In this document: one piece after another, positions 1,258-60,984 of the stretch
Layout of the letters: each line of letters starts with the position of its first letter
How positions within the stretch are numbered: position 1 is the first letter of the stretch
Virus record (IMG/VR): IMGVR_UViG_3300038548_000082
Span: 30,889 to 94,888 of that record
Source of the DNA: a virus
Taxonomy: Duplodnaviria > Heunggongvirae > Uroviricota > Caudoviricetes
Strand: one strand, 5' to 3'
DNA length: 64,000 nt
Notes under the pieces: generated by a model
Seen by the model: the letters and a program-made list of their open reading frames with translations, nothing else
Databases searched by the model: none
What the model was told of the DNA's origin: nothing
Translations under genes and position numbers: made by a program

Positions 1258-2484
1258 ATGGAAACATACTTAGTAGGTGGAGCAGTCAGGGATAAGCTTA
1301 TGGGTTTAACTCCAAAGGATCTAGACTACGTAGTAGTTGGGCAAACACCTGAGAAGATGCTTGAACAAGGCTTCTCTCAGGTTGGTGCTGACTTCCCAGT
1401 GTTCCTACACCCTGAGACAGGTGACGAGTACGCACTAGCAAGGGCTGAGAAGAAAGTTGGAGTTGGTTACACTGACTTCACTTGTGTATGGGACTGTGTG
1501 CCTATCTGGGAGGACTTAGATCGTAGAGACCTAACTATTAACTCTATTGCTATGCATTCTAATGGGGATCTCATGGACCCTTGTAATGGTCAGCAGGATA
1601 TCGAGGATAAGATACTACGACACACCTCAGAAGCCTTCTCAGAAGATCCTGTACGTGTTTTACGTATTGCACGTTTCTTAGCACGTTTTGGCGATGAGTG
1701 GACTGTAGCACCGGAGACTTACGCTCTTTGTCAGCGTGTAGCTTGGGCAGAGTTCAAGCACCTGACACCTGAGAGAGTGTTCAAGGAAATGGATAAGGCT
1801 TTATCTGAGCCTCACCCTTGGCTGTTCTTTGAGTTCCTGCACATGCTTGACTTTCACTGGTTTAAAGAGTTGTGGGATCTAAAAGGTATCCCTCAGCCTA
1901 TCACTCATCACCCTGAGAATTGCACATTTCAGCATACTATGTTAAGCCTTAAGCAAGGTGTGAAGATGAGCTTTTCTAATGAACAGTTGTTCGCTGTTCT
2001 GTGTCATGATCTAGGTAAAGCTCCCTGTTGGAAAGAACGAGGGAATCTACATGGACATGAAAGCGCAGGTATTCCTTTTGTAGAAGCTTTATGTGACCGT
2101 CTTAAAGTTCCCTCATCTTACAGGGAATTAGCTGTGAAGGTGTGTGAGAACCACCAACGGGGTCATAAGGTTATGGATATGAAGCCTGCTAGCATTCATA
2201 ACTTGTTTAAGAAACTTGATTGTATTCGTAAACCTGATATACTGGGTAAATTCACTGAATGTAATTGGGCTGATGCGACTGGTAGGTTGGGGTTTGAAGA
2301 CAAGGATTACCCTCAAAGAGGCTTCTTATTCAGTTGTTTGTTTGCTGTACAAGGGGTAGACACCAAAACTATCGCTGAAGAATGTATTGAAAAAGGTTTG
2401 ACAGGTGCTGACATTGGTGAGAGAATACGTGTAAAGCAAATAGACGCTATTAGAGGAGTTAAGAACACATGGAACAAGAATTGA
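1258..2484 (+). CDS. cca: CCA-adding tRNA nucleotidyltransferase with HD domain
   Basis: N-terminal GGAVRD...DLD head motif and HD motif (LCHDLGK); 408 aa, same size/architecture as bacterial Cca. Confidence 0.85.
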   Translation: METYLVGGAVRDKLMGLTPKDLDYVVVGQTPEKMLEQGFSQVGADFPVFLHPETGDEYALARAEKKVGVGYTDFTCVWDCVPIWEDLDRRDLTINSIAMHSNGDLMDPCNGQQDIEDKILRHTSEAFSEDPVRVLRIARFLARFGDEWTVAPETYALCQRVAWAEFKHLTPERVFKEMDKALSEPHPWLFFEFLHMLDFHWFKELWDLKGIPQPITHHPENCTFQHTMLSLKQGVKMSFSNEQLFAVLCHDLGKAPCWKERGNLHGHESAGIPFVEALCDRLKVPSSYRELAVKVCENHQRGHKVMDMKPASIHNLFKKLDCIRKPDILGKFTECNWADATGRLGFEDKDYPQRGFLFSCLFAVQGVDTKTIAEECIEKGLTGADIGERIRVKQIDAIRGVKNTWNKN

Positions 2485-2918
2485 GAGCATATTTCTTTCA
2501 GAACATGTACTTGCAAGGGATTCATGCAGGTATTCAAAGCCAGCATTGTACTGCTGAGATGTTCTGTAAGTACAGTATCGGTAATGATTTGGATCAACCT
2601 ATGGCAAGAACCTTATATGCTTGGGCTACCTTCCATAAAACAACTATCGTGCTTAATGGTGGCGATGCTTCCAACCTGAAACGTATTGCAACGTTACTGG
2701 ATTCTCACCCACATAATTACCCTTGGACTTACTTCGAAGAAAGTGAAGAAGCCCTTGGTGGTTGTATTACTAACGTGGGGATCATCTTGCCTGAGAAGAT
2801 TTTTAATCACTTTTCTAGTGATGGTGAGATTGTAGAGTGTCCCTACAGTAACACGACATTAACGGAGTTTGAGATTAACTTAGCAATGGAGGTATCACAA
2901 TGCAGGTTGATGAGCTAA
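2469..2918 (+). CDS. hypothetical protein
   Basis: ORF track 149 aa; translationally coupled to neighbours. Confidence 0.45.
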   Translation: MEQELRAYFFQNMYLQGIHAGIQSQHCTAEMFCKYSIGNDLDQPMARTLYAWATFHKTTIVLNGGDASNLKRIATLLDSHPHNYPWTYFEESEEALGGCITNVGIILPEKIFNHFSSDGEIVECPYSNTTLTEFEINLAMEVSQCRLMS

Positions 2919-3421
2919 ACAGTATTGTACAGCACTACGCTGGTTCCTTATCTTATGGGACCAACTTACCCACTTCGGATGTAGATATTCGAGGGGTATT
3001 CTGTGCTGAGCCTAAGAACATTCGTACACCCTTCTACCCTGTACGTGAAGTCACACTACAGGATGAAGAGGATGGTAAGTTATACGAGCTTAGTACATAC
3101 ATGCATCTATACACTCAAGGTAATCCTAATATCTTAGAGACCTTGTGGGTAGACAATACAGATATCATTCAAGGTAGCGATGTTTACTCCTACCTACGAG
3201 GCTATCGTACAGACTTGCTAAGTTCTAAGGTAGCCTTTACCTTTAGTGGTTATGCTATCAGTCAGTTGAAGCGTATCAAAGGTCATAACAAGTGGATAAC
3301 CCAAGAGCAACGTGGGTATGCTAAACTTAGGGCTTCATTACGTTCTGGTGATATTTCTGAGAACCAGATAGTATACCACTTCGGAGAAAAGACTCTAAAT
3401 AAGGTTAAGGAAACAAAATGA
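2900..3421 (+). CDS. predicted nucleotidyltransferase, N-terminal half (pfam10127-like), split gene
   Basis: Motif GSxxYGxxxxxSDVDxRGV typical of pol-beta-fold NTases; stop overlaps HEG start (ATGA). Confidence 0.55.
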   Translation: MQVDELNSIVQHYAGSLSYGTNLPTSDVDIRGVFCAEPKNIRTPFYPVREVTLQDEEDGKLYELSTYMHLYTQGNPNILETLWVDNTDIIQGSDVYSYLRGYRTDLLSSKVAFTFSGYAISQLKRIKGHNKWITQEQRGYAKLRASLRSGDISENQIVYHFGEKTLNKVKETK

Positions 3422-4053
3422 AGTATTATGTGTACACGCTGTCTGATAATCACAAGATTTTTTATATAGGTAAGGGTTCGGGGGACAGGATGTATCGACA
3501 TCTTAAAAAGGTTAAAAGAGGGGCTACAACGGACAATCACCACCTTGACAATAAACTGCAAAAGATGTTACGCGATGGTGTGCAAATCTCATACAACAAG
3601 GTGTATGAAACTGGTGATGAAGGTCTTGCTTATGCTCATGAAAGGGAGCTAGTTGCTAAGGTGGGACTTTCTAATCTCTGTAATATACAAGCAGGGGGTT
3701 ATGGTGGTAACAGTCCCTCACAAGAGACTAGAGACAAAATTAGTGCATCCAAAAAGAGGAAGCCATTGACAGAGGCACACAAACAGAAGTTACGAGAAGC
3801 CAAACTAGGGATAAAACAGACACAGGAAACAAAGGATAAGCGGTCTCTTTCACTGAAAGGTAAGCCACAAACCGATAAACAAAAGGCATCAAACCACAAA
3901 AGGGGTCTTAAGGGTAGAAAACTTACCGAGGAGCACAAGCAGAAGCTACGGGATGCGAAGTTGAAAAACCCGACTAAATACTGGCTAGGAAAAGAAATCC
4001 CAGAAGAAACTAAACAGAAGATATCAACTACTTTAAAGGGGACTGAGAAATGA
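3418..4053 (+). CDS. GIY-YIG homing endonuclease with NUMOD3 repeats
   Basis: KYYVY...IFYIGKGSGDRMYRH GIY-YIG motif; C-terminal repeated KGxKxxEEHKQKLR NUMOD3-like units. Confidence 0.8.
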   Translation: MKYYVYTLSDNHKIFYIGKGSGDRMYRHLKKVKRGATTDNHHLDNKLQKMLRDGVQISYNKVYETGDEGLAYAHERELVAKVGLSNLCNIQAGGYGGNSPSQETRDKISASKKRKPLTEAHKQKLREAKLGIKQTQETKDKRSLSLKGKPQTDKQKASNHKRGLKGRKLTEEHKQKLRDAKLKNPTKYWLGKEIPEETKQKISTTLKGTEK

Positions 4054-4727
4054 ATATAACCAAGTTACTCGCTGATCCTGACGTAAGTCTTTTAACAGAG
4101 GAGAAGCCACAGCACAAAGACTACTTAAAGTTGGTGCAGAACTTTACAACGGCTAAGATTCTACCAAGAGAGTTCAACTTTGATTATTTGCGTGGTCACA
4201 GCATGGTACATTATGGTGGTAATACCTTTGGTGTGGATACTGGAGGAAGTGTTAGTGCTGTTACTGTTGATGGAGATTTCAACGTCTCTGCAAAACAAGC
4301 AGAAAGGAACGCTAACTCAGGTCATACACCTAAGTACATAGTCAAGTACCTAGCAGAAGATTACAAGCTTGCTAAGGAGAAGCATTACAACTACTGGAAC
4401 TGGAAGAACAATCGTAATGAGAAAAGAAGTGCATTAGAAGAAGATTTCGGTTATGATACAAAACATGCCATGCACTTAGTACGATTACTACGTATGGGTG
4501 AAGAGATTCTTTCAGGTCAAGGTGTAATTGTTAAGCGTCCTGACGCTCAAGAGTTATTAGACATTCGAGCTGGTCAGTGGAGCTATGAGGAGTTATTAGC
4601 TTACGCTGAGACGAAGGATGAGCTGATTAGAGGCGAGTTGTACAAGAATACAAGCTTACCTAAGACACCTAACATTAAATTAGCTAGCAAGGTCTTGATG
4701 GAAGCTCAAGACATGTGCTGGAATTAA
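4050..4727 (+). CDS. predicted nucleotidyltransferase, C-terminal half (pfam10127-like helical region)
   Basis: KHAMHLVRLLRMGEEIL motif characteristic of the C-terminal region of the same NTase family; start overlaps HEG stop (ATGA). Confidence 0.45.
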   Translation: MNITKLLADPDVSLLTEEKPQHKDYLKLVQNFTTAKILPREFNFDYLRGHSMVHYGGNTFGVDTGGSVSAVTVDGDFNVSAKQAERNANSGHTPKYIVKYLAEDYKLAKEKHYNYWNWKNNRNEKRSALEEDFGYDTKHAMHLVRLLRMGEEILSGQGVIVKRPDAQELLDIRAGQWSYEELLAYAETKDELIRGELYKNTSLPKTPNIKLASKVLMEAQDMCWN

Positions 4728-4984
4728 GAGGAGGGTTCGCAATGGGTGCTGGAGGATTGAGCTTAGCTTGGGCAGTTAAAGCTACCGCAGGTTATCGACT
4801 TGAAAACTATGATGGTGCTTTTATTGTCTACCCCGGTGCTGCTGCTGATTGCAAATCCTACTGTATTCAAGAGTCATTAGAAGCAGTTGTTATTAACGAA
4901 AAAACAGACCAAATAACCTTGGAGAAATACTATGACGCAACAGGAAAAAGGTACATCAATCCTAACTCGAACGGTTATTTTTAG
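4715..4984 (+). CDS. hypothetical protein
   Basis: ORF track. Confidence 0.3.
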   Translation: MLELRGGFAMGAGGLSLAWAVKATAGYRLENYDGAFIVYPGAAADCKSYCIQESLEAVVINEKTDQITLEKYYDATGKRYINPNSNGYF

Positions 4985-5621
4985 TGGGGGTACGATGGTA
5001 CATGTACGTCCTCATTTTAGTTTGTGTGCTCCAGCTTATGGTAAGGTGGGGAGATCCATAGGCGATTTGTTGACATCATGTACTGGTTTTAATAAAGGTT
5101 CACACCTTATCGAAGTCCTCAGTACAAATATGGCTGGTGGTAACCACGGTATTGAAACCAACAACGACCTTGATACAGCTTTGAGTGGGGTTCTGGCAGA
5201 CCCTTTAACCAAAGTTATTGTTATGGCTGCTGCTGTTTGTGACTTCGAGCCACATCATTTAGAAAACTTTAAAATGATTACTCATGACTTCGGAAAGACT
5301 GAAGAACGTCTTAGTTCACAAGACAGCTACTCACTAACGCTAATACCTTCTGCCAAGATCCTTCAACGTATTAAACAGGAACGTCCTGATATCTTTCTGG
5401 TTAGTTTCAAAACTACCTCTGACGAGGACGTGACAGCTTTGATAAGTAAGTCTAAGCAGAACATGAGTGTGACAGAAGCAGATGTGGTCTTTGGTAATGA
5501 TATAAAACGCCATTTTAACCTGTTAGTTAGTGGGGAAAGTATTACCTCTCTTGATAGATCGGGATGTGTGTCTGAGTTGGTTGGTATTCTAAAAGATGTT
5601 GTTGAGAAGTTCGAGGTATGA
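4932..5621 (+). CDS. CoaB-like (DFP / phosphopantothenoylcysteine synthetase family) protein
   Basis: Alignable by eye to E. coli Dfp CoaB domain: TVIFSGGT..VRPHFS..APAYGKVG vs RVLITAGPT..VRYISNHSSGKMG; AAAVCDF vs CAAVADY; NDI vs NDV. Confidence 0.5.
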   Translation: MTQQEKGTSILTRTVIFSGGTMVHVRPHFSLCAPAYGKVGRSIGDLLTSCTGFNKGSHLIEVLSTNMAGGNHGIETNNDLDTALSGVLADPLTKVIVMAAAVCDFEPHHLENFKMITHDFGKTEERLSSQDSYSLTLIPSAKILQRIKQERPDIFLVSFKTTSDEDVTALISKSKQNMSVTEADVVFGNDIKRHFNLLVSGESITSLDRSGCVSELVGILKDVVEKFEV

Positions 5622-5682
5622 CATTAGCCGGTATACCACTCAAGTGGATTCTCATTATGGCCTCAAGGGGGTTTTGATTATC

Positions 5683-5753
5683 CGCTCAAGCGATTTCTCA
5701 TATACGACTCAAGCGATTTCTGATTCACGCCTCAAGCGATTTCTCATATACGG
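5683..5753. repeat. three tandem direct repeats (~23 bp, core CTCAAGCGATTTCT)
   Basis: Core at 5685-5698, 5708-5721, 5731-5744; degenerate copy at 5661. Confidence 0.7.
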
Positions 5754-5799
5754 GTTTACACGTTTTTACACGAGAATTTGCTTTGAAAAGTGGATTTTT

Positions 5800-5900
5800 A
5801 CGAATACGAATGAGAATCATTATCAAACGCGAATGATTATCATTCAAGGTGTGAATACGAATCATTATCATTATCAAACACGAATAAGAATCATTAGCAT
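5800..5900. repeat. AATACGAAT...AATCATT repeat family (4 copies)
   Basis: Repeated AATACGAATgagAATCATTATCAAAC units; inverse of repeats at 13229-13386. Confidence 0.65.
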
Positions 5901-6014
5901 TTAGAAAACACCGCCCACTCTCTCTTCCTCTCTGATGAGATTCCGCTTAGACTTCCCTGCCTACCCCCTCTCAACAAGGCGAACTTCTTTCGCCCTCTCT
6001 CAAGTAGTGGGGCT

Positions 6015-6042
6015 ATCTTAACAGGCTGATAGCAGCTGTCAA
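6015..6042 (-). promoter_or_regulatory. sigma70-like promoter on minus strand (TTGACA-16-TAAGAT) reading leftwards into ORF-free repeats
   Basis: Reverse complement of 6015-6042 gives TTGACAgctgctatcagcctgtTAAGAT; part of 35-bp perfect inverted repeat. Confidence 0.5.
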
Positions 6043-6277
6043 CACTTTATTAAAAAGAATTTAAAATACTTTATTAGTAATGAGAATCATTCGCATTCGC
6101 TAAATAACGCCCACCTTCCCCTCCTCCGTAGTCAGAATGTATAGAGATCATAACATACTGATTAGCCCCGTCAACCACTAATTACAACTAATCACAAATA
6201 AACCTAAATTAAATTACCTATATAAGAAGCAACAACAAATCAAAAGTATTTTAAATTCTTTTTAATAAAGTGTTGAC
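6038..6277. repeat. 35-bp perfect inverted repeat (arms 6038-6072 and 6243-6277) carrying divergent promoters
   Basis: gtcaacactttattaaaaagaatttaaaatacttt vs its exact reverse complement. Confidence 0.8.
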
Positions 6278-6300
6278 TCTCTCTGTAGCTTTGTTAAGAT
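6273..6300 (+). promoter_or_regulatory. sigma70-like promoter (TTGACT-16-TAAGAT)
   Basis: Consensus boxes upstream of ORF 6340. Confidence 0.6.
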
Positions 6301-20762: not shown

Positions 20763-20836
20763 AGCCCCTTACTTAACAGGAGAAAGCTTAGTTTACGAAA
20801 CTAAGGATCAGGGTTCGAGTCCTTGAGGGGCTGCCA
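20763..20836 (+). tRNA. tRNA-Arg (anticodon ACG)
   Basis: Manual fold: acceptor AGCCCCT/AGGGGCT, AC stem TTAGT/ACTAA loop TTACGAA, T-loop TTCGAGT, CCA encoded. Confidence 0.7.
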
Positions 20837-21143
20837 ACATAGGAGAAGTTAAAATGAAAGTAACATGCAGTAAAGTTAAACGTCTCCGACAAGGTGGCGG
20901 CTCTAGTAACAGTCCTACAGTTACCAGTAAAGTAACAGCATTCCGATGGCAACCTAAAGACCTAAGCGATATTAAAGGTATTTAGGGTTACGGACACAAG
21001 GTGTCAGAAGGATTCCAAACCCTTCTTACGGGGAGCATTACCTCGGTAGCCTGCCAAAGAGAGAACAACGGATTAAGGGACAGGTACTTGCATCCTGCTT
21101 ATCGACGCTGTAACAAGCTTAGCAAGAAAAGTAAAATAAAGAG

Positions 21144-21171
21144 TTGACATATACAAGAGTCGTGTTATTAT
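21144..21171 (+). promoter_or_regulatory. promoter (TTGACA-16-TATTAT) with hairpin across -10
   Basis: Sequence. Confidence 0.5.
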
Positions 21172-21287
21172 AACCACTCTTGAAGAAAGAAATCCAAAGT
21201 AACTTAACAGAAACTAAGGAGGACGATATGCAAATCGGGGGCTAAAGACCCTCAGCCAAGAAAAGTAGAATTAACTGTTGACAGTGA

Positions 21288-21315
21288 GTAAAAACGTGTT
21301 ATACTGTGCAACATA
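21288..21315 (+). promoter_or_regulatory. promoter (TTGACA-16-TATACT) upstream of tRNA-Lys
   Basis: Sequence. Confidence 0.6.
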
Positions 21316-21376
21316 ACTTAAACTAACCCATAAGGAGGGTTTCAATGAAACAATCAGACAAACCCAATAAACTTAT

Positions 21377-21452
21377 GGGTGTGTAGCTCAATTGGTAGAG
21401 CAGGGAGCTTTTAACTCTCAGGTCGTCGGTTCAATCCCGACCACACCCACCA
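21377..21452 (+). tRNA. tRNA-Lys (anticodon TTT)
   Basis: Manual cloverleaf; GGGTGTG/CACACCC acceptor, loop CTTTTAA, CCA encoded. Confidence 0.85.
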
Positions 21453-21849
21453 AAGAGTGTATTTAAAGGAGACCTTTAACCACAACAGTTATAACATCGT
21501 GTTGATGTAGAAACAGTAAAGTTAGAGATCTCGTTTAAGTATATTCACTTGAAATAGATAATTCAGTGTAGCCTAAGAAGCAGCTTGAATGTACTTATAG
21601 ATCCTTTTAATTGACACATAGCAGCTAGTAATGAGTGACTAATTAGTCAATGTGTTCTATAAAATATTAACAATGAAACATTTGCTCTACGCACTAAACA
21701 GTAGAAACACATCTTATAAAGAAGATTAGTGGATGTAGAGCACTTAATTAAGGAGATTATCATGGAATCACGAGAGATTATAACCGATCCCAGATAACTC
21801 ACCGCAAACTATAAACGGTTGTGGTGGGTTTTATTTAGGATCACTACAA

Positions 21850-21926
21850 CCGAGTGTGGGGCAGTTTGGTAGCCTACTCTGTTTGGAACGGAGGTGTCGC
21901 AGGTTCGAATCCTGCCACTCGGACCA
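21850..21926 (+). tRNA. tRNA-Pro (anticodon TGG)
   Basis: Manual cloverleaf; loop TTTGGAA; T-loop TTCGAAT. Confidence 0.8.
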
Positions 21927-21939
21927 ATTTTTAAATTGT

Positions 21940-22015
21940 GTCCTTATAGTTTATATGGTTAGAACGGTGGGCTTTCACCCCGCAGAACCGAGTTCGATCC
22001 TCGGTAAGGACACCA
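21940..22015 (+). tRNA. tRNA-Glu (anticodon TTC)
   Basis: Manual cloverleaf; loop CTTTCAC. Confidence 0.8.
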
Positions 22016-22017
22016 AT

Positions 22018-22093
22018 GCTCTGGTAGCTCAGTTGGTAGAGCAAACGGTCGATAACCGTTAGGTCATTGGTTCAAGTCCAATACAGAGTACCA
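22018..22093 (+). tRNA. tRNA-Ile (anticodon GAT), C at position 33
   Basis: Manual cloverleaf; loop TCGATAA; 7-66 mismatch. Confidence 0.6.
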
Positions 22094-22100
22094 AATTAAT

Positions 22101-22170
22101 GCGGATAAGCTTAAGGTTAGTCGCTGGGTTTCCAACCCATGTAGTTAGGGTTCGACTCCCTGTATCCGCT
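22101..22170 (+). tRNA. tRNA-Gly (anticodon TCC), 3' CCA not encoded
   Basis: Acceptor GCGGATA/TATCCGC as in T4 tRNA-Gly; loop TTTCCAA; ends ...GCT then CAA. Confidence 0.7.
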
Positions 22171-22321
22171 CAAACATTGACAGCAAGATCTGAGGAAAGG
22201 TGGTTTCATGCAGTGAGATGCAGTCCTCTATAAATCTCGTAAAGCTCCTAATGTAGGAGTCGAACCACACGCTGTTAATTAGTCCATATGCTTTGGAAGA
22301 GTAATGGACGACCAAATTAAA

Positions 22322-22396
22322 GGTTTTGTAGCTCAGAGGCAGAGCAGTCGGTTGTCAGCCGTCAGGTCGGGATTTCAAAATTCCTCAAAACCGCCA
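22322..22396 (+). tRNA. tRNA-Asp (anticodon GTC)-like, noncanonical T-arm
   Basis: Acceptor GGTTTTG/CAAAACC; loop TTGTCAG; U-U mismatch in AC stem, weak 53-61 pair; possibly pseudogene. Confidence 0.45.
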
Positions 22397-22398
22397 AT

Positions 22399-22474
22399 GC
22401 TCGAATAGCTCAGTTGGCAGAGCGCCTCCCTTGTAAGGAGGATGTCGTGGGTTCAACTCCTACTTTGAGCGCCA
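22399..22474 (+). tRNA. tRNA-Thr (anticodon TGT)
   Basis: Manual cloverleaf; loop CTTGTAA. Confidence 0.8.
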
Positions 22475-22557
22475 AATTAAACGGGGGTGCTATAGACAAG
22501 GCTGGATAATTACCAGATGATATAGATTCCATCTCCGACCAAACAATTGCGGTATAG

Positions 22558-22633
22558 AGAAGTGGTTATCTCGTTGGGTTCATAACCCAAAGATCGGGGG
22601 TTCAAATCCCTCTACCGCTACCAAACATTAATT
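22558..22633 (+). tRNA. tRNA-Met (CAT), initiator-like
   Basis: GGG/CCC in anticodon stem, A11-U24, 1-72 mismatch (T-T); loop TTCATAA. Confidence 0.75.
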
Positions 22634-22655
22634 AATACAAGGCTGTATATATTAA

Positions 22656-22865
22656 ATGAGCGTGATACATTTAACGACTAAGATACAAGAAACAATTAAA
22701 ACGATCCTTACCCCTTTGGAAAAGACTGAAATGGAAGAGGTGATCGAGTCAGTAAATGATGAAAGTACTATTCGAGGCGAATGGGCTTTTGAAGCTGGTA
22801 AAAAGGCTAGAGATGTAGGAAGAACTAATTCACCACCTGAAGTCTACGATGTTTTAGTAGACTGA
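22656..22865 (+). CDS. hypothetical protein
   Basis: ORF track. Confidence 0.4.
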   Translation: MSVIHLTTKIQETIKTILTPLEKTEMEEVIESVNDESTIRGEWAFEAGKKARDVGRTNSPPEVYDVLVD

Positions 22866-22888
22866 AGTTACTTAACAAGTACAAACAA

Positions 22889-22965
22889 TTCCTCGTGGGG
22901 CGCAAGGTGTGCCGAGTGGCTGTTAACCACTGTCGTAGTAACGTTCGATTCGTTAACGGGGAGCC
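22889..22965 (+). tRNA. tRNA-Asn (anticodon GTT)
   Basis: Acceptor TCCTCGT/ACGGGGA, AC stem AGTGG/CCACT loop CTGTTAA, T-loop TTCGATT; 7-nt variable loop. Confidence 0.65.
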
Positions 22966-23048
22966 AATTTCGACTAGACATACTTAAATCGTGAGTTCAC
23001 GAGCCTTCGGGTGGGTTGGTCAAGTCTCTGTTAATATGGAGACAAAAC

Positions 23049-23423
23049 ATGAAAGTTTGCACTTTGTGCGAAGAGAATAAACCCTTAACCGAGTTTAGGA
23101 AAAGGGCTAATAGAACCGGGTATCATGTACACTGTAAACCCTGCCAAGTCCTTTACGTGAGTAATAGGAGAAGGGAAATAAAGAAGCAGTGTCTTGAGTA
23201 TAAAGGTGGGTGTTGTTCAAAGTGTGGTTACGATAAATCAGACTATGCTTTAGAGTTTCACCACAGAGACCCCGAAAAGAAAGACTTCAGTATAAATAGA
23301 GGAGCTTCTTTAGTTTTTGATAAACTAAAAGAGGAACTTGATAAATGTGACTTACTTTGTGCTAATTGCCACAGAGAGGAACACGAACGATTAACACATA
23401 CACTAGGAGATTCGTCATTATGA
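23049..23423 (+). CDS. HNH endonuclease
   Basis: CTLC...C..C zinc knuckle, EFHHRDP and CANCH motifs. Confidence 0.65.
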   Translation: MKVCTLCEENKPLTEFRKRANRTGYHVHCKPCQVLYVSNRRREIKKQCLEYKGGCCSKCGYDKSDYALEFHHRDPEKKDFSINRGASLVFDKLKEELDKCDLLCANCHREEHERLTHTLGDSSL

Positions 23424-23500
23424 ACTTTACTTATCAACATAGCCAATTTAGTTTCCAATATTACTTTAGTTAGATAAGTAGGTTCCCGAGTGGATGCTTA

Positions 23501-23584
23501 TTTAATATAGGGTCTGCTCGCATGATGGAGAATGCACCGCACTGTAAATGCGCTACGAGAGTTGTCTTGGTTCGATTCCAAGTA
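23501..23584 (+). tRNA. tRNA-Tyr (anticodon GTA), type II
   Basis: Loop CTGTAAA, long variable arm, T-loop TTCGATT. Confidence 0.6.
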
Positions 23585-23591
23585 GGCCCAC

Positions 23592-23677
23592 CAAAATTTA
23601 GGAAGATTGGCAGAGCGGTAATGCAGCTCCCTGCTAAGGAGTACAGTCGAAAGGCTGCGTAGGTTCGATTCCTACAT
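23592..23677 (+). tRNA. tRNA-Ser (anticodon GCT), type II
   Basis: Acceptor GGAAGAT/ATCTTCC, loop CTGCTAA, long variable arm. Confidence 0.8.
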
Positions 23678-23678
23678 C

Positions 23679-23754
23679 TTCCGCCAAGGGTCTGTAGCTC
23701 ATCTGGTAGAGCATCGGTGTGAAGTACCGAGTGTAATAGGTTCAAGTCCTATCA
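23679..23754 (+). tRNA. tRNA-Phe (anticodon GAA)
   Basis: Manual cloverleaf; loop GTGAAGT. Confidence 0.8.
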
Positions 23755-23877
23755 GGCCCACCAAATTATAGTGGTGGTCTAATGCAAACAGGTGAGCAGC
23801 TGGATTGTGATTCCAGTGATATGGAGTTCGAGACTCCAAGGCCACACATCTATTCTATCAACGTCGAGGAGACTGTT

Positions 23878-24264
23878 ATGGATACAAAAACGAAGGCTAA
23901 ACAAAAGAAAGCCCTTCAACTTGGTATGAACCCTGCCACAGCGAGTGGTAGGTTGGTTAAAGATACGCTATTCCGCTTAGCTGTATCTACAGGACACAAG
24001 TGCTTCCAGTGCGGTGAAGAACTAACCAGAGAAACGTTCTCCATAGAGCACATGGAACCGTGGTTAGATAGCGAAGACCCTAAAGGTAACTTCTTTGACC
24101 AAGGTAATATAGCTTTTAGCCACCTTAGTTGTAATCGTGCAGCAGCCCGCCCCAGACCACGTACAGCAACTCGTGCAGAGGCACAAGCTACCTTTCGAGG
24201 TAGATTGGGTAAAACCGAACAGGCTAGACGACGAAAGGAGCAGTACCAACGTACAGGCACCTAG
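23878..24264 (+). CDS. HNH endonuclease (terminase-associated type?)
   Basis: CFQCGEEL...SIEHMEPW...SHLSCN; internal ATG with GAGGAG RBS chosen over 23782. Confidence 0.55.
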   Translation: MDTKTKAKQKKALQLGMNPATASGRLVKDTLFRLAVSTGHKCFQCGEELTRETFSIEHMEPWLDSEDPKGNFFDQGNIAFSHLSCNRAAARPRPRTATRAEAQATFRGRLGKTEQARRRKEQYQRTGT

Positions 24265-24559
24265 ACACCAATTAATAAGGTTTTTATTATGAGTACAGAA
24301 GTGTAACTTACGTCAATAAGACGACAGTAAACATCAAAATTAAGGAGCTACAAAAGCTTCTTAAAACTGCACAGAACCCCATTATAAAAGATAGGCTTCT
24401 GGTAGACTTAAAGTCATATAGGGCAATAAAGCACCTATTAGATCAAAAAGATTAAAAGGAAATATACCAATGTTCAAAATTACTTACATACTATTATCGC
24501 TCTCGTTATCCCTTAAATAGGGAGGATGAGTAGCACCTTATCTTCCTTAACAATACATT

Positions 24560-24645
24560 GGAAGGTAGGGCTTAGTGGTAAGCAACTAGTCTTGAAAACT
24601 AGCCCTGTGTAAAAGCAGATGGTTCGACTCCATTACCTTCCTCCA
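24560..24645 (+). tRNA. tRNA-Ser (anticodon TGA), type II
   Basis: Acceptor GGAAGGT/ACCTTCC, loop CTTGAAA. Confidence 0.75.
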
Positions 24646-24652
24646 AACAATC

Positions 24653-24729
24653 GCTCCGGTGGTCAAATTGGAATAGGCAGCAGACTTAAAATCTGTGGAT
24701 TGCGAGTTCAACTCTCGCTCGGAGCACCA
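24653..24729 (+). tRNA. tRNA-Leu (anticodon TAA) with short variable loop
   Basis: Loop CTTAAAA, A73 discriminator, 5-nt variable loop (atypical for Leu). Confidence 0.65.
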
Positions 24730-24734
24730 AACAT

Positions 24735-24811
24735 GGGCTGGTATAAGAATTGGCATATTTGCCTCGCTTAGAACGAGGAGTTTTCGGGTTCGAGTCCCGA
24801 TCAGCCCACCA
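24735..24811 (+). tRNA. tRNA-Leu (anticodon TAG) with short variable loop
   Basis: Loop CTTAGAA, A73, 5-nt variable loop. Confidence 0.65.
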
Positions 24812-25031: not shown

Positions 25032-26600
25032 ATGAGTGCTAATGTTTACAGACCCCAAGAGGGTGCTCAAGAAATAGCTATGAATGCTCCACAGGACATC
25101 GTAATTTATGGTGGGGCTGCTGGTTCTGGTAAAACGCACTTAATGCTACTTAGACCACTATTACAAATTCACGATCCAAAATTTAATGCTATCTTCTTCC
25201 GTAGAACAGGCCCTCAGTTATCTGGTGCTGGTTCTGTATGGGATGAGGCTAAACAACTTTATTCGGAATTCGGAGCACGTATCCGAGAGAATGATAGAGA
25301 GATCATCTTCCCCTCAGGTGCGAAGATTAAGTTTTCTCACATGGAACACGAAAAGAACAAAATAGACCACCAAGGTAAGCAGTATACTCATGTCTACTTT
25401 GATGAAGGTACACACTTTACTCAAGGCCAAATAACATATCTTATGTCTCGACTGCGTTCGGCAGCTGAGGTAAAGAGTTCTATGTTTATTTCTTGTAACC
25501 CTGATCCTGATAGCTTCATCGCCCAATTAATTGATTGGTGGTTAGATGAAGATGGCTTCCCAGATAAAAAGAAGTCAGGAGTTACCAAGTATTATGGTAG
25601 TGTCAAGAACGACATATACTTTACAGATACTGAAGAGGAGATGGCTGAACTGTATCCACAAGTTTGCTGGGTATGGAATCCGTTAACAGAAAAAAAGATT
25701 TACGTACCACCAAAGACTATCACCTTTATAGGTGGGACTATCTTTGATAACCCTGCCTTGATTATGGCTAACCCTAACTATCTTGCTGAGCTTAACGCTT
25801 TGCCTCAGATAGAGAAGGATCGTTTATTACATGGTAACTGGTATGCTAGACCTGAAGGTTCCTCACATTTCCAGAGGAAATGGTTAACAGTTGTAGATCG
25901 AGTTCCAGAGTCAGCTATTAATTGCAGAGCTTGGGATAAGGCAGCTACAGAACCTTCTGAAAAGAATACTCACCCAGATTATACAGCCTCTATAAGAATG
26001 GCTAAAGATCGTCATGGTTTCTTCTACTTGATAGGAGACTTTCAGGAAGATAACTATGATAAAAAAGATTGTAAACAGAATAAGGTACTTGGACGATTCA
26101 GAGAACGTTCCGGTAGGCGAGACGTACTGATACATAAACAAACGGAACACGATGGTAGTAGTTGCACTGTAGTCTTTTCACAAGACCCCGGTTCAGCTGG
26201 TATAACGGAATTCACAGAATCCGCTAAGAAACTTATTTGTGAGGGATACGTGGTTAAAAAAGATCCTATGCCCACACAAAGTGGTAAGCTCACTAGATAC
26301 CTACCTTTTTCAAGTGCAGCAGAGAATGGACTTGTTTACTTAGTCAAAAACACTTTCAACCCTGCAACACTAGAAGCATTCTTTAAGGAGAATGAAGCTT
26401 TTGATGGGGAGAGGTCTAGTGACCACAGGAAAGATGATTGGCCTGATACAGTTGCTTCTGCTTTTAATCACTTATCCTCTGCACGAACAGTTAGATTGGT
26501 ATGTCGTAACCAAAACAGAACGAGTACGATGGCTTCAGAAATACTCGCTACAGAGTCTGTTAAGGTTTCCGATCTTGAACGGATGGATATGAAAATTTAA
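25032..26600 (+). CDS. terL: terminase large subunit
   Basis: Walker A GGAAGSGKT near N-terminus; 522 aa; position upstream of portal. Confidence 0.85.
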   Translation: MSANVYRPQEGAQEIAMNAPQDIVIYGGAAGSGKTHLMLLRPLLQIHDPKFNAIFFRRTGPQLSGAGSVWDEAKQLYSEFGARIRENDREIIFPSGAKIKFSHMEHEKNKIDHQGKQYTHVYFDEGTHFTQGQITYLMSRLRSAAEVKSSMFISCNPDPDSFIAQLIDWWLDEDGFPDKKKSGVTKYYGSVKNDIYFTDTEEEMAELYPQVCWVWNPLTEKKIYVPPKTITFIGGTIFDNPALIMANPNYLAELNALPQIEKDRLLHGNWYARPEGSSHFQRKWLTVVDRVPESAINCRAWDKAATEPSEKNTHPDYTASIRMAKDRHGFFYLIGDFQEDNYDKKDCKQNKVLGRFRERSGRRDVLIHKQTEHDGSSCTVVFSQDPGSAGITEFTESAKKLICEGYVVKKDPMPTQSGKLTRYLPFSSAAENGLVYLVKNTFNPATLEAFFKENEAFDGERSSDHRKDDWPDTVASAFNHLSSARTVRLVCRNQNRTSTMASEILATESVKVSDLERMDMKI

Positions 26601-50909: not shown

Positions 50910-52085
50910 ATGTTAGAAGTACAAAAGTTTTTAAACAGAGAGACAGCGAACTACGGGGTAGGGGATGAGCAGCGAAAGGGGGAGCATGCACTTGCCATGC
51001 TAAAAGAAGCATACGGGATAAAAGCTAACATCTGGAAAGGGCAACTAGTTTGCTTAAACTATTGCCAGATAGAAAGCCCTAAGACTCACCCTATCACGAT
51101 AGAGTCCCGTTCTTTAGTACTAGAATTTGGATCTTGGGAGGTTATTTCAAGGTCGTTCTCAAGGTTCTTTAATCTAGGAGAGATCGGTGAGGTGAATGAA
51201 GAGTGGGTTCCTTGTCCTACTAAAGGTGTGAGTCGATTCCGTACTATGACCTTCCACGAGAAGATGGATGGTTCTTTGATTGGTATCTTCACTTACAAGA
51301 ACCAATTACTTTACCGTACTCGTTCTCTGATTATGCCAGAAGGGGATATCAATGGGACTGGAACTACTTGGAAGGAAGCTATTGAGTCTTGTTTACCTAT
51401 CTCTTGGCGACCTCCTTACAGTAGTGCTCTTGACGTTACATTGATCTGTGAGCTTACTTGTAGGGAGAATCGTGTGGTTGTTAAGTATGATGCCAAACCT
51501 GACTTGACGTTACTGGCTATAAGAGGTCGTGATGGTAAGTATCACGATGCTGAAACAGCTACGTTTATAGCAGACCGTTATGGTTTCTCACTTCCACATA
51601 CCTATAACTTTAGCACAACAGCTGACTGTTTAAGGGCTTGTAAAGAGCTACCAAACCTTGAAGAGGGTTACGTAGGTTATAACCCTGCTGGGATACCTTG
51701 TGTAAAGATTAAGAACCCAGCTTATGTAGCTGCTCATCACTTACGAGGTGAAGGCTTAAATGAGAAACGTATTCTTGATATAATCATTATGCATGAAGAG
51801 GTAGAGTACTTGACACTCTTCCCAGAAGATGAGAACATGTTCGAACCGTATACAGATGCTTATGCTGAAATGGTACAGTCTTTCTATACGTTAGAGAAGC
51901 TGATTAATGAATGGCACTTTGTTCAGATGGATCAGAAGACCTTTGCTATGTTCTTCAAGGACATGCATTACTCTGCTATGGCTTTCCAGATCAGGAAAGG
52001 TAAGACTTGGAAGCAAACGTTTGAAGGGTTGACACAACAGAAGAAACGTGATTTAATACTGAACTACAAAGGAGGATTAGAATGA
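50910..52085 (+). CDS. rnlA: RNA ligase 1 (T4 RnlA-type)
   Basis: Motif [10 protein letters not shown] (T4: KEDGSLVS), EGYVGY (motif IV) and [12 protein letters not shown] (T4: KIKSDWYVSLH). Confidence 0.8.
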
Positions 52086-58942: not shown

Positions 58943-59235
58943 GATCAAAGACTACATCTTGCTGAAGCACGTAAGCAGAGATAGTGGTAAACTTAGAACT
59001 TATTTCATCAAGAGGAGCACTTTGGATGGGAACAGCTACGAGTTTGAAGATGGTTTCAACGAGCGGTATGCTATGCTGCTATCAGACATTGTTACGGAAG
59101 GTCATCTTGTATTCAAATGCAGGTACGACATTAACACCCTACTACTGTTAGGATTAAACATTTATTAAATAATGGTGGACACTTACTCAGTAAATCAGTA
59201 TAGTGTCCTCACTAACTAATACAAAGGAGAAACAC

Positions 59236-60984
59236 ATGAGTAATTTCCCAGCCACTTTGAGTTCAGACGTCTATAAGGTATTCCACCCAGCAGCAGGTCA
59301 CCCTGATATTGTGGCAACCTACGAGAACTTTACAAACCGTAGTGGACGTTTGAGTAACGTCAAAGATAATAAGGCTGTAGTCAATGTAGGTTGGCAGGCT
59401 GTTATTAAGAAGCACTTGATTGACCGTTGGAATAACACCTTCTTCAAGGTAGAGAAGTCTAAGGCTATTGCCCGTTACAAGGTGGTAACTACATCTATCC
59501 TAGGTTACGAAGTCTCTACCACTCACTTGGAGAAGCTACATGATCTTGGCTACTTGCCACTACGTGTTAAGACTTACCCCGAAGGTACTTTAGTTCCTTA
59601 TAGTGTCGCTAGTGCTACATTTGAAACAACTGTATTTGGTTTTGAATGGTTGCCCGGTATGCTTGAGACTGTTATCTCTCAAGAGGTTTGGCCCATTCAG
59701 ACTGCGGCTACCACCTCTCTTGCGTATCAGCGTAAGCAGAAACAGTTATTTGAAGAAACTGGTGGTCCTATGGAGCTGTTACCTTTCATGATTCACGACT
59801 TCTCAGCGCGTGGTGGCTTTGGTGAAGAAGCTTCTGCAATGTCAGGTTTTGGTCACCTAGCAGCAGGTTCAGCAGGTTCGGATACTATCGCAGCAGGTAT
59901 GTTTGCTGAGGAGTACTACTGTGCTGACTGGGAGAATGAATTGATTATGGCTTCCGTCAACGCCACTGAACATAGCGTTACCTGTGGATGGTTAGAAGAA
60001 GGTGAAGCAGTATACTTCAAGCACTTGATGGAGAACGTTGCACCTGAGGGCATCCTGTCCGTTGTATCGGATACTTGGGACTTCTGGCACACTGTTACTG
60101 TAATTGCAGACGAGCTTAAAGAAGTTATCATGAACCGTAATGGTAAGCTTGTGTTCCGTCCTGATAGTGGTGACCCTGTTGATATCTTGTGTGGTACAGG
60201 AGCTGAGTTTAATTTTGAAACCTTGGAAGACGCTCTAGATGAATTTGAGGACTACCACTCTAACCAAGCAACCGAAGATTGTGAGGGTGCTTATAATATT
60301 GGCAACGAGAGCTACACTGATCTAGTTCAGGCTGACGGTAAATACTACGAGATCACTACCAAGTTTGAATATAACCGCCACGACAAGATGTACTACTTCA
60401 TTGACAATTATACCTCTGGATATGGAGAACCTGTTGCAGTGGAAGTAGAAGCTACACCAGAAATGAAAGGTCTTGTAGAAGTCCTATGGGATACCTTCGG
60501 TGGTACAGTTACTGACAAAGGTTTCAAGATGCTTGACGAACACGTTGGTGCTATCTACGGTGATGCAATCACATTAGAACGTCAGGACCAGATTGGTGAC
60601 CGTTTGAAGGCTAAAGGCTTCGTACCTCAGGTAGTACTTGGTGTAGGCTCTTTTAGTTTCCAGTACGTTACTCGTGATACTCACGGCTCAGCTATGAAGG
60701 CTACTAATGTGACTAAGGTAGATCATGTAGCTGCTTCTGAGACGTTTGGGGAGACCCCAACTTATGACCAACCAATCTTCAAAGATCCTAAAACGGATTC
60801 TAAGAAGAAGTCTGCTAAAGGTCTACTACGAGTAGAACGTGAAGATGGTCAGCTTGTTCAATACGACATGCAAACTCGTGAGCAAGAGAAAGAAGGCTTA
60901 CTACAAGTTGTCTTTGAAGATGGTGTGCTGTACAATGAGCAAACCTTAAAAGGCATCCGAGAGCTTGTTGCAAGTCAGCTGTAA
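59236..60984 (+). CDS. nadV: nicotinamide phosphoribosyltransferase
   Basis: N-terminal NFPATLSSDVYKVFHP and overall ~580 aa NAMPT-like; AAGGAG RBS. Confidence 0.8.
   Translation: MSNFPATLSSDVYKVFHPAAGHPDIVATYENFTNRSGRLSNVKDNKAVVNVGWQAVIKKHLIDRWNNTFFKVEKSKAIARYKVVTTSILGYEVSTTHLEKLHDLGYLPLRVKTYPEGTLVPYSVASATFETTVFGFEWLPGMLETVISQEVWPIQTAATTSLAYQRKQKQLFEETGGPMELLPFMIHDFSARGGFGEEASAMSGFGHLAAGSAGSDTIAAGMFAEEYYCADWENELIMASVNATEHSVTCGWLEEGEAVYFKHLMENVAPEGILSVVSDTWDFWHTVTVIADELKEVIMNRNGKLVFRPDSGDPVDILCGTGAEFNFETLEDALDEFEDYHSNQATEDCEGAYNIGNESYTDLVQADGKYYEITTKFEYNRHDKMYYFIDNYTSGYGEPVAVEVEATPEMKGLVEVLWDTFGGTVTDKGFKMLDEHVGAIYGDAITLERQDQIGDRLKAKGFVPQVVLGVGSFSFQYVTRDTHGSAMKATNVTKVDHVAASETFGETPTYDQPIFKDPKTDSKKKSAKGLLRVEREDGQLVQYDMQTREQEKEGLLQVVFEDGVLYNEQTLKGIRELVASQL

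Follow-up and report, generated by a model that had tools for sequence, protein, structure and literature searches.

Background

A close described counterpart of the locus reported here is the nrdA gene of Aeromonas phage Aeh1, which is split by mobE and has been reviewed among phage "genes in pieces" (PMC2988022). Translational coupling across overlapping start and stop codons has been discussed in this context for T4 nrdA/mobE, and gene 43 of T4-like phages furnishes a further precedent, in that it is found split either with or without a seg gene (PMC2988022). An entirely separate line of work has only recently established the biochemistry of RlaP, an enzyme that restores RNA 3′ ends after damage (PMC12776372). 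The RlaP proteins of Pseudomonas fluorescens and P. aeruginosa are single chains of ~250 aa encoded in RtcB operons, and the addition of one or two NMPs to RNA 3′-OH ends has been reported only for these Pseudomonas enzymes (PMC12776372). The RlaP crystal structure shows an NTase domain and a helical domain with a cleft between them; the substrate is bound in this cleft, which both domains form, and the last helix packs on the helices of the N-domain (PMC12776372).

Here, we describe a locus from the window (i.e., the whole 64,000-nucleotide stretch of a caudoviricete genome that was analyzed) which we consider, with high probability, to be an RlaP-family gene split by a homing-endonuclease insert, whose product is made as two polypeptides that reassemble.

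Organization of the locus

The locus comprises three plus-strand ORFs in three different reading frames with stop codons between them: an RlaP-family nucleotidyltransferase ORF of 173 aa (the N-half; 2900–3421); an intact, free-standing GIY-YIG/NUMOD3 endonuclease of 211 aa with its own start and stop (3418–4053); and an ORF of 225 aa (the C-half; 4050–4727) composed of a leader, a phage-specific middle region and a helical C-terminal domain with KHAMHLVRLLRMG. An earlier note on this DNA had reported these ORFs together with ATGA overlaps at both junctions, and reading of the sequence bears this out: the N-half stop overlaps the endonuclease start at 3418–3421, and the endonuclease stop overlaps the C-half start at 4050–4053. 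A GGAGG Shine–Dalgarno motif lies upstream of the N-half (2888–2892), an AAGGA Shine–Dalgarno-like motif ahead of the endonuclease start (3407–3411) and a GGGGA motif ahead of the C-half start (4038–4042). By analogy with the T4 case, the ATGA layout suggests translational coupling. A promoter and terminator scan turned up nothing notable within the three-gene unit.

The same note placed the split gene next to cca and saw in this a role in tRNA or RNA repair. The cca tRNA nucleotidyltransferase gene (1258–2484, plus strand) is indeed nearby, but it is not the immediate neighbor: a phrog_3668 ORF (2469–2918, plus strand) lies between it and the N-half, and this order of cca and the phrog_3668 ORF also precedes intact nucleotidyltransferase genes in the related loci L002, L100 and L101. 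The proposed role agrees both with RlaP biochemistry (PMC12776372) and with the gene content of the window, which encodes an Rnl1-like RNA ligase and 16 tRNA genes in addition to cca. No close relative of the phage was found, its TerL reaching at most 49% identity; likewise, neither a megablast search of the phage collection with this region nor an IMG/VR scan with the C-half alone returned a match.

Two parts of one RlaP-family enzyme

The pol-beta-type motif and the helical signature that the earlier note had recognized at the N- and C-terminal ends are present in the respective halves as AGSLSYGTNLPTSDVDIRGV and KHAMHLVRLLRMGEEIL. As for the family assignment that it had proposed, the N-half matches PF10127 (RlaP) with 40.9 bits (E = 2.5e-10), well above the cut-off of 23, whereas a profile search with the C-half gave no Pfam match. 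Nevertheless, the C-half shares 63–71% identity with intact, ~350-aa proteins that do match PF10127, and both halves match phrog_388 ("nucleotidyltransferase") over contiguous stretches of the profile, namely positions 32–179 for the N-half (E = 7e-38) and 178–335 for the C-half (E = 2e-32). When joined, the halves align in one piece, over 98–100% of their length, with single-ORF nucleotidyltransferases; in 191 of 262 matching phage records at least 80% of the joined sequence is covered in one place, the single-ORF homologs measuring ~350 aa. The flanking ORFs thus belong to one family, as had been claimed. The N-half contains a complete pol-beta-type catalytic domain followed by a 36-aa tail: the G[GS]/DxD motif residues (G15 S16, D27 and D29) are present and invariant in the homolog alignment, and D58, which we infer to be the third catalytic carboxylate, is invariant across 41 and 51 homologs. 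Based on these comparisons, ORF 2900–3421 is the N-terminal part and ORF 4050–4727 the C-terminal part of a single predicted RNA 3′-end nucleotidyltransferase of the RlaP family (PF10127).

Both pieces appear to be under selection, since the ORFs are full length with invariant catalytic and signature residues in the homolog alignments of each, and since pN is below pS in every segment across dozens of lineages. The latter support is qualitative only, as pS is saturated (0.8–0.9); the same ORF lengths recur throughout these lineages saturated at synonymous sites.

In the predicted domain layout, the split separates the catalytic domain from the helical one. An AF2 model of the joined halves (pTM 0.72) has confident cores and is helical from residue 275 on, with pLDDT mostly 85–98 in the C-half core and a dip to 69–75 around model residues 291–310. 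The tail and leader score 59–70 in this single-chain model, values that are uninformative as there are no paired rows for them. The helix spanning residues 111–140 scores 63–74 when the N-half is modeled alone as against 79–98 with the C-half present. A fold search yielded only weak, superfamily-level matches to KNTase-type enzymes, and a sequence search of the PDB gave no match.

The insert and its flanking codons

Intact single-ORF homologs in relatives without the endonuclease, which the earlier note had suggested seeking, exist in the syntenic loci L100 and L101, where an uninterrupted gene occupies the same position. The N-core of the window is 82% identical to that of L100 and 80% to that of L101, and the DNA matches L100 in two blocks, at window positions 2916–3297 (L100 5032–5413) and 4099–4165 (L100 5431–5497). 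With respect to these relatives, the insert is of 784 nt, at ~3311–4094, and its junction lies between GHNKWITQEQ and T-EEKPQHKDY. The endonuclease gene (3418–4053) does lie between the halves, as had been described, but the junctions are not bare: the insert also adds a 36-codon tail to the N-half (3311–3418, plus strand; residues 138–173), which is without counterpart in intact genes, and a 15-codon leader to the C-half (4050–4094, plus strand; residues 1–15, MNITKLLADPDVSLL), which is missing from them, i.e., 51 codons in all. These extra codons, the wide spread of the layout and the possibility that the endonuclease was not the original splitter go beyond the earlier note.

Alignments show the tail to be conserved in other split alleles, with pN < pS between carriers, although among tails of type A that of the window has diverged furthest (26–35% identity). 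In the AF2 model of the N-half alone, residues 141–170 are predicted to be helical with pLDDT of 90–93. Conserved and confidently folded in prediction, the tail looks functional. In split alleles of type A, the leader keeps the pattern L.D(P/A)D(V/I).LL(T/S); correspondingly, intact homologs cover 92–93% of the C-half as against 97–100% for split C-halves. Pfam matches end at profile positions 140–147 in every form of the gene and are uninformative as to whether the tail is canonical RlaP sequence. A MAFFT placement hinted that the tail might have arisen by duplication of the sequence immediately following the split and then diverged; this was rejected, the hhalign probability being only 2%.

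The endonuclease

The middle ORF matches the GIY-YIG domain PF22945 (E = 3e-12), NUMOD3 PF07460 over residues 166–203 (E = 6e-10) and phrog_314 "homing endonuclease" (E = 3e-20), in agreement with its earlier identification. Residues Y4, Y6, Y16, G18, R24, H28, E75 and N89 do not vary among 25 homologs, and the enzyme is, by all sequence indications, catalytically intact. It also weakly resembles endonucleases of group I introns, below the cut-off (E = 1e-4 with TIGR01453).

Its close relatives form a clade of 22 clusters at 46–57% identity, followed by a sharp drop. Members of this clade sit inside the same nucleotidyltransferase gene in other phages, and at least 11 of the 22 clusters come from a contig of the same length as one bearing an N-half of type A, which we take to be the same contig. 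Of 80 relatives from IMG/VR that are more distant (28–43% identity), none is near this nucleotidyltransferase gene. The close clade is, in the sequences surveyed, restricted to this position of this gene; at the same time, the endonuclease is absent from the syntenic L100, L101 and L002.

Recurrence and turnover of inserts

The triad of N-half, endonuclease and C-half is also found in L005, L008, L009, L011, L020 and L182, and this layout recurs in many uncultivated phages; across the related loci both halves always co-occur in the same order. Elsewhere, the same gene is split by three other nuclease types, so that the kinds encountered at it are GIY-YIG, two PD-(D/E)xK-like types and a DUF7487-like protein. 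Some phages instead carry an intein (L084, L017 and L093), with the signature GYD|C...H(G/S)N|(T/S)KHAMH, at a site other than that of the window's split. Among 60 intact genes, the insertion sites coincide with the three most conserved 24-nt segments of the gene, that of the window being the second most conserved.

Closely similar phages can carry different inserts. In L011, L013 and L015, three different inserts accompany N-cores that are 87–92% identical; between L011 and L013, DNA identity is 95.5% as far as codon 135, whereas the inserts themselves cannot be aligned. The N-core of the window is 80–82% identical to intact alleles as against 51–66% to other carriers of the same insert; hence, the inserts have a patchy distribution that does not track exon relatedness. 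Endonuclease genes are decaying in L014 and L020, and certain alleles lack the endonuclease and still consist of two ORFs, namely L092 with a 64-nt spacer and L017/L018 with a 97-nt spacer. One in-frame form among the relatives is either re-fused or ancestral, and in L093 an unsplit protein has the tail and leader module in frame.

Proposed mechanism and alternatives

The three cistrons probably share a single mRNA and are translated in a coupled manner, because each has its own ribosome-binding motif and the ATGA overlaps join them. The enzyme would then most likely consist of two polypeptides that reassemble without a covalent link, thereby rebuilding the active-site cleft between the domains, a process that may be assisted by the leader and by the tail, which is conserved and predicted to be helical; as an RlaP-family member, it would be expected to add nucleotides to damaged RNA 3′ ends. 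The endonuclease most likely spreads by cutting the highly conserved, intact KGHNKWINNPQ-coding sequence in co-infecting phages, its presumed target being the intact KGHNKWINNPQP-coding sequence of alleles such as L100 and L101, upon which it would be copied in during repair together with the tail and leader.

Whether the endonuclease was also the agent of the original split can be viewed differently. The split could predate the present endonuclease, with a tolerant junction hosting unrelated nucleases and the GIY-YIG gene being a later tenant, an origin that is possible though in our view doubtful. It would explain why tails of type A are homologous to those of type B (hhalign probability 93%, E = 3e-7) even as they adjoin unrelated nucleases, the homology of the type D tail being suggestive (E = 4.5e-4), and it is in keeping with the endonuclease-free split alleles, with the decay of endonuclease genes, and with the precedent of gene 43. 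Given the homologous tails beside unrelated nucleases and the endonuclease-free split alleles, the present endonuclease need not have caused the original split. However, the exons of the window are 80–84% identical to intact alleles versus 51–68% to any other split allele, and, being far closer to the former, they indicate that the tail, endonuclease and leader were probably acquired together in the lineage of the window; moreover, the close endonuclease clade is found at this site only. For the window itself, an older split is largely compatible with insertion by the homing endonuclease and two reassembling polypeptides; the two views part only over how the split first arose in the wider family. 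As a still more adventurous proposal, which we advance tentatively and regard as somewhat unlikely, the tail and leader, rather than being incidental read-through, would constitute a dedicated reassembly module that makes a domain-boundary cut tolerable, and the junction a long-lived landing pad. If so, nucleases from no fewer than three or four unrelated families would occupy this junction, replace one another and leave it again, the split being kept even without an endonuclease, and the tail and leader would amount to a portable "split-tolerance adaptor" that evolves in concert with the selfish elements.

The remaining alternatives concern the fate of the product. That the insertion inactivated the gene, leaving two decaying, functionless ORFs, might be read from the minority status of split alleles (5 of 80 IMG/VR loci, as against about 70 intact) and from the divergence of the window's tail; yet both ORFs are full length with invariant catalytic and signature residues, their lengths are stable across dozens of lineages with pN < pS throughout, every cistron retains a ribosome-binding motif and a coupled start, and elsewhere the split outlasts loss of the endonuclease without further decay, all of which makes inactivation very unlikely. 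It is also conceivable, though we think quite unlikely, that the halves have parted ways, with the N-half and its tail acting as a minimal nucleotidyltransferase and the C-half doing something else: the N-half does hold the whole catalytic domain, and the tail, if it is the compact helical unit that is predicted, could shield the surface that the split leaves exposed. Such independence sits poorly with an RlaP substrate cleft to which both domains contribute and a last helix that packs on the N-domain (PMC12776372), with a helix 111–140 that is confidently modeled only in the presence of the C-half, and with the constant pairing of the halves in one order. Restoration of a single product by a group I or group II intron, an intein, a split intein or ribosomal bypassing deserves hardly any credence. 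Inteins are in-frame, begin with Cys or Ser and end in His-Asn followed by Cys, Ser or Thr; a genuine in-frame intein-like insert does occur in relatives of the gene, but at a different site, and the above-noted weak TIGR01453 similarity of the endonuclease is the other pointer in this direction. Here, the three frames with intervening stop codons exclude an intein, and a split intein was rejected because the tail and leader total only 51 aa, without a first-position Cys/Ser or a terminal Asn. In line with the earlier note, which saw no intron-like structure, an Rfam search with cmscan of 3100–4400 at E ≤ 10 detected no group I or group II intron and just two chance snoRNA matches, and the insert outside the endonuclease ORF has only 107 and 41 nt, both of which code for conserved protein. 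The endonuclease-free relatives bear directly on this point and on the two-polypeptide product that had been proposed: as they still encode two separate ORFs, 64–97 nt apart, two polypeptides are the only reasonable reading.

Implications

The locus is a new example of a known phenomenon, the endonuclease-split phage gene. What is new comes from the related loci, whose sequences mark this gene as a recurrent target of several selfish elements. Within one gene one can capture the stages of a selfish-element life cycle: intact alleles, four nuclease types, an intein, decay, an endonuclease-free split and an in-frame form. The related loci also yield new candidates for site-specific endonucleases whose target can be predicted. 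From the viewpoint of the virus, an RlaP encoded beside cca, an RNA ligase and tRNA genes presumably counters host nucleases that attack tRNA. As what is most likely a natural two-piece enzyme, cut between its predicted catalytic and helical domains, it offers a system for studying domain cooperation and bears on how split proteins reassemble, a question left by the T4 "genes in pieces" literature.

Comparison with known systems

The RlaP proteins of bacteria share with the phage enzyme the Pfam family and, as predicted for the phage enzyme, the succession of an NTase domain and a helical domain, as well as a setting reminiscent of RNA repair, which in the window takes the form of the RNA ligase, cca and tRNA genes; the phage form differs in having an extra middle region of ~110 aa and, here, in being split, and its activity is presumptive. 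A distant member of the family, T4 NrdC.11 (PF10127, E = 5e-12; 24% identity to the window enzyme), likewise keeps company with a homing endonuclease, the HNH gene mobD lying directly upstream with a 17-nt overlap; however, mobD sits beside nrdC.11 and leaves it intact.

The resemblance to Aeh1 nrdA/mobE is closer: in both, a free-standing endonuclease gene lies inside a conserved phage enzyme gene, and the two resulting polypeptides are collinear with a single-chain homolog and have overlapping or coupled starts and stops. In contrast, the host gene here codes for an RlaP RNA nucleotidyltransferase rather than a ribonucleotide reductase, the endonuclease is of the GIY-YIG/NUMOD3 rather than the HNH type, the function of the split enzyme, shown for Aeh1, is one we infer here, and a conserved tail and a conserved leader come with the insert. 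Gene 43 of the Aeromonas phages 25 (with seg43) and 44RR (with an endonuclease-free spacer) displays the same split with and without an endonuclease, and there, too, one may ask if the endonuclease is the cause of the split or an invader of an already split gene. The present family differs from it in that at least four unrelated nuclease types occupy this site or a neighboring one, with an intein at a third, and in that it extends over far more lineages, all of them metagenomic.

A nucleotidyltransferase gene in two pieces

We found that the locus at 2900-4727 is made up of an N-half ORF (2900-3421, 173 aa), an endonuclease ORF (3418-4053, 211 aa) and a C-half ORF (4050-4727, 225 aa), which occupy three different reading frames and are joined by ATGA stop/start overlaps at 3418-3421 and 4050-4053. 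Each is preceded, at a distance of 6-8 nt, by a Shine-Dalgarno-like motif: GGAGG (2888-2892), AAGGA (3407-3411) and GGGGA (4038-4042), respectively. The ORF coordinates and overlaps of the earlier note are exact, and the two motifs it quoted, that of the nucleotidyltransferase (NTase) in the N-half and a helical signature in the C-half, are both present.

The N-half matches PF10127, the RlaP family of RNA 3′-end nucleotidyltransferases (E=2.5e-10; 40.9 bits, cut-off 23), and the central ORF matches the GIY-YIG domain PF22945 (E=3e-12) and NUMOD3 (E=6e-10). The proposed membership of both halves in PF10127 holds in Pfam for the N-half; a Pfam profile search of the C-half returned no match, yet both halves fall in phrog_388 (“nucleotidyltransferase”), the N-half on profile positions 32-179 (E=7e-38) and the C-half contiguously on 178-335 (E=2e-32). 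In tblastn searches, the joined halves give a single alignment, spanning 98-100% of their length, with single-ORF NTases of ~350 aa; of the 262 matching phage records, 191 have at least 80% of the query covered in one place. These records include Salmonella phage PVP-SE1 (gp166) and Vibrio phage 496E54-1, whose gene order (cca, phrog_3668 ORF, NTase) is that of the window. The C-half core is most closely related to intact proteins (63-71% identity), two of which, from the phage loci L100 and L101, share upstream synteny with the window, thereby providing the endonuclease-free single-ORF homologs that the earlier note called for. Thus, the shared profile and one-piece alignments place the flanking ORFs in one family, and they represent one gene.

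Boundaries of the insert

Homology to L100 and L101 extends through ...KGHNKWITQEQ of the N-half (residue 137) and restarts at residue 16 of the C-half (T-EEKPQHKDYLKLVQNFT), the corresponding junction in L101 being KGHNKWINNPQ-P-EEKPKHKDYLKMVQNFT. At the DNA level, 2916-3297 and 4099-4165 of the window match L100 5032-5413 and 5431-5497. Hence, the window carries ~784 nt (3311-4094) that are absent from intact genes, namely a 36-codon N-half tail (residues 138-173), the endonuclease gene and a 15-codon C-half leader (residues 1-15); we label this insert type A.

An Rfam search of 3100-4400 (E<=10) gave two snoRNA matches, both due to chance, and none to introns of group I or II; outside the endonuclease ORF the insert comprises just 107 and 41 nt, both coding for conserved protein, so an intron is rejected. 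An intein is ruled out by the three frames and stop codons; as a split intein, tail and leader (51 residues) are too short and lack both the nucleophile and the terminal Asn. Endonuclease-free relatives keep two separate ORFs, 64-97 nt apart. The Rfam, frame and two-ORF evidence goes against an intron or intein that restores a single product, which in the earlier note would have refuted the split, and the note's overall reading of an endonuclease-split NTase gene is supported, with reassembly of the products as the inferred step.

Recurrence of the split and conservation of the tail

Searches with the N-half recovered dozens of 174-190-aa proteins covering 94-99% of it, with the tail included and clearly conserved. 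The triad of N-half, GIY-YIG/NUMOD3 gene and ~225-aa C-half is also seen in L005, L008, L009, L011 and L182, several of these in other surroundings, between gp32/UvsX and UvsW. Split alleles are a minority, at 5 of the 80 IMG/VR loci retrieved, with ~70 intact. No earlier description of an RlaP or NrdC.11 gene in split form was found in the literature. The endonuclease belongs to a clade of 22 clusters (46-57% identity), beyond which identity drops to 42% or less; at least 11 of the 22 come from contigs equal in length to those carrying type A N-halves and were taken as lying on the same contigs, and one member lacking such a pairing is also located inside the NTase gene. Another 80 relatives, at 28-43% identity, are more distant, and not one of them is close to the NTase gene. 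The GIY-YIG core residues are invariant across the homologs, so the endonuclease in the window appears active.

Between carriers, the tail has pN<pS (with synonymous sites saturated) and, when modelled with tail-bearing homologs, it is predicted to form confident helices (pLDDT 90-93, residues 141-170). It does not derive from duplication of the downstream exon (hhalign probability 2%). Type A tails match those of the type B inserts described below (hhalign probability 93%, E=3e-7), the nucleases being unrelated, and a type D tail gives a suggestive match (E=4.5e-4). Such homology across unrelated nucleases argues that the tail is part of the split gene and not of any one endonuclease.

A hot spot for selfish elements

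The NTase gene has taken in selfish elements of several kinds. Type B (L010, L013), a 340-aa NUMOD3 and TnsA-like nuclease, lies a few codons upstream of the type A site; type D (L097), a 330-aa DUF7487-like protein, sits in the same place as type B; and type C (L015, L016), a 250-aa TnsA-like nuclease, follows YWxWK. Further, an in-frame insert of ~340 aa at GYD|C...H(G/S)N|(T/S)KHAMH, found in L084 3956-6043, L017 4611-6434, L093 3947-6292 and also L018, has LAGLIDADG-like motifs and weak matches to intein-containing models and appears to be an uncatalogued intein allele. Among 60 intact genes, the three 24-nt windows ranking highest in conservation encode YDTKHAMHL, IKGHNKWIN and NYWTWKKNR, which are the intein, type A/B/D and type C sites, respectively. 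Such conserved sequences are typical homing endonuclease targets.

Endonuclease genes are decaying in L014 (5600-6379; type B, 259 aa vs 340) and L020 (4519-5106; type A, 195 aa vs ~222), and type A homologs of 189-197 aa form a whole sub-clade, consistent with decay after fixation. Split alleles devoid of the endonuclease occur in L092 and L017/L018, with L017 combining the intein-like insert with a type A split minus its endonuclease. The L093 insert lies in a single 781-aa ORF (3947-6292) with a type B-like tail and leader joined in frame, which represents a re-fusion that followed loss of the endonuclease or else an ancestral form, never split, that has the module.

The RlaP family draws endonuclease elements both into the gene and alongside it. 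Directly upstream of intact RlaP-family genes are a 339-aa ORF of Vibrio phage 2.275.O (L004 2964-3983), annotated as a GIY-YIG domain protein and here giving only a weak SegE_GIY-YIG match (E=0.016), and, upstream of nrdC.11 in T4, the HNH endonuclease gene mobD (L099 8430-9209). Beside the intact RlaP gene of Pseudaeromonas phage KLEP7, cca is annotated as two ORFs (L001 2776-3309 and 3379-4020), and may likewise be split, or else frameshifted.

Mobility and history of the inserts

With its tail removed, the window's N-half shares 82% and 80% identity with the intact L100 and L101, against 51-66% with other carriers of type A. For the last 88 residues of the NTase the figures are 84% and 78% vs 57-68%. 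Likewise, this N-half core is 87-92% identical among L011 (type A), L013 (type B) and L015 (type C), and endonuclease-free type B L092 is 82% and 89% identical to type C L016. L011 and L013 DNA is 95.5% identical up to N-half codon 135, unalignable over the insert and the first 136 C-half codons, and 88% identical beyond, a pattern that a swap of the insert plus flanks would produce. Insert type thus does not track exon relatedness, which is evidence for mobility. The type A inserts themselves are old, given 45-55% identity of the window's endonuclease to the others and saturated synonymous sites.

A partly rival history is that the gene was split once and the junction then served as a landing pad for successive nucleases, which the homology of type A and type B tails, found beside unrelated nucleases, supports. 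However, the exon-versus-insert mismatch suggests that tail, endonuclease and leader were acquired jointly in the window's lineage. The same question on the origin of the split has been raised for the split gene 43 of T4-like phages (PMC2988022).

A predicted role in RNA repair

Pseudomonas RlaP adds one or two nucleotides to RNA 3′-OH ends and aids repair of damaged tRNA; its active-site cleft lies between an N-terminal NTase domain and a C-terminal helical domain, the final helix packing against two N-domain helices, and T4 NrdC.11 is a family member (PMC12776372), matching PF10127 in our profile search. The window's split falls at the boundary of these domains; the joined halves are modelled at pLDDT 86.7 and pTM 0.72 with tail and leader as a lower-confidence excursion, and helix 111-140 of the N-half goes from poor support in the N-half model to good support once the C-half is included. 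From these we infer that three coupled cistrons on one mRNA would yield two polypeptides reassembling into an active enzyme.

The RNA-repair role predicted in the earlier note fits cca, a T4 Rnl1-like RNA ligase (50910-52085; PF09511, E=4e-15; phrog_562) and 16 tRNA genes (20763-24811), which with the RlaP gene suggest an RNA-repair toolkit. In the relative L100, a Pnkp-like gene is also located close to cca. Within the tRNA cluster, small ORFs at 23016-23423 and 23782-24264, the latter overlapping tRNA-His, show weak HNH matches (E=7e-4 and 3e-3, both below cut-off), paralleling segB in the T4 tRNA cluster. A DFP-like ORF just downstream of the split gene (4932-5621; PF04127, E=3e-11) and a nicotinamide phosphoribosyltransferase (59203-60984) are auxiliary metabolic genes. 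The window comes from a novel tailed phage, which appears to be a myovirus and has a TerL at most 49% identical to known phages. The match of this terminase (25032-26600) to phrog_979 begins only at profile position 148; the closest homologs, from Aeromonas phages such as 2L372X (H59-H66), are annotated as two ORFs and align in two pieces, and may be interrupted.

Comparison with known systems

The arrangement is of the same kind as nrdA/mobE of Aeh1, 39-60/mobA of T4 and gene 43/seg of phage 25, from each of which it differs in both host gene and endonuclease. Three further features stand out: the conserved tail and leader, the number of unrelated elements in one gene and the endonuclease-free split alleles.
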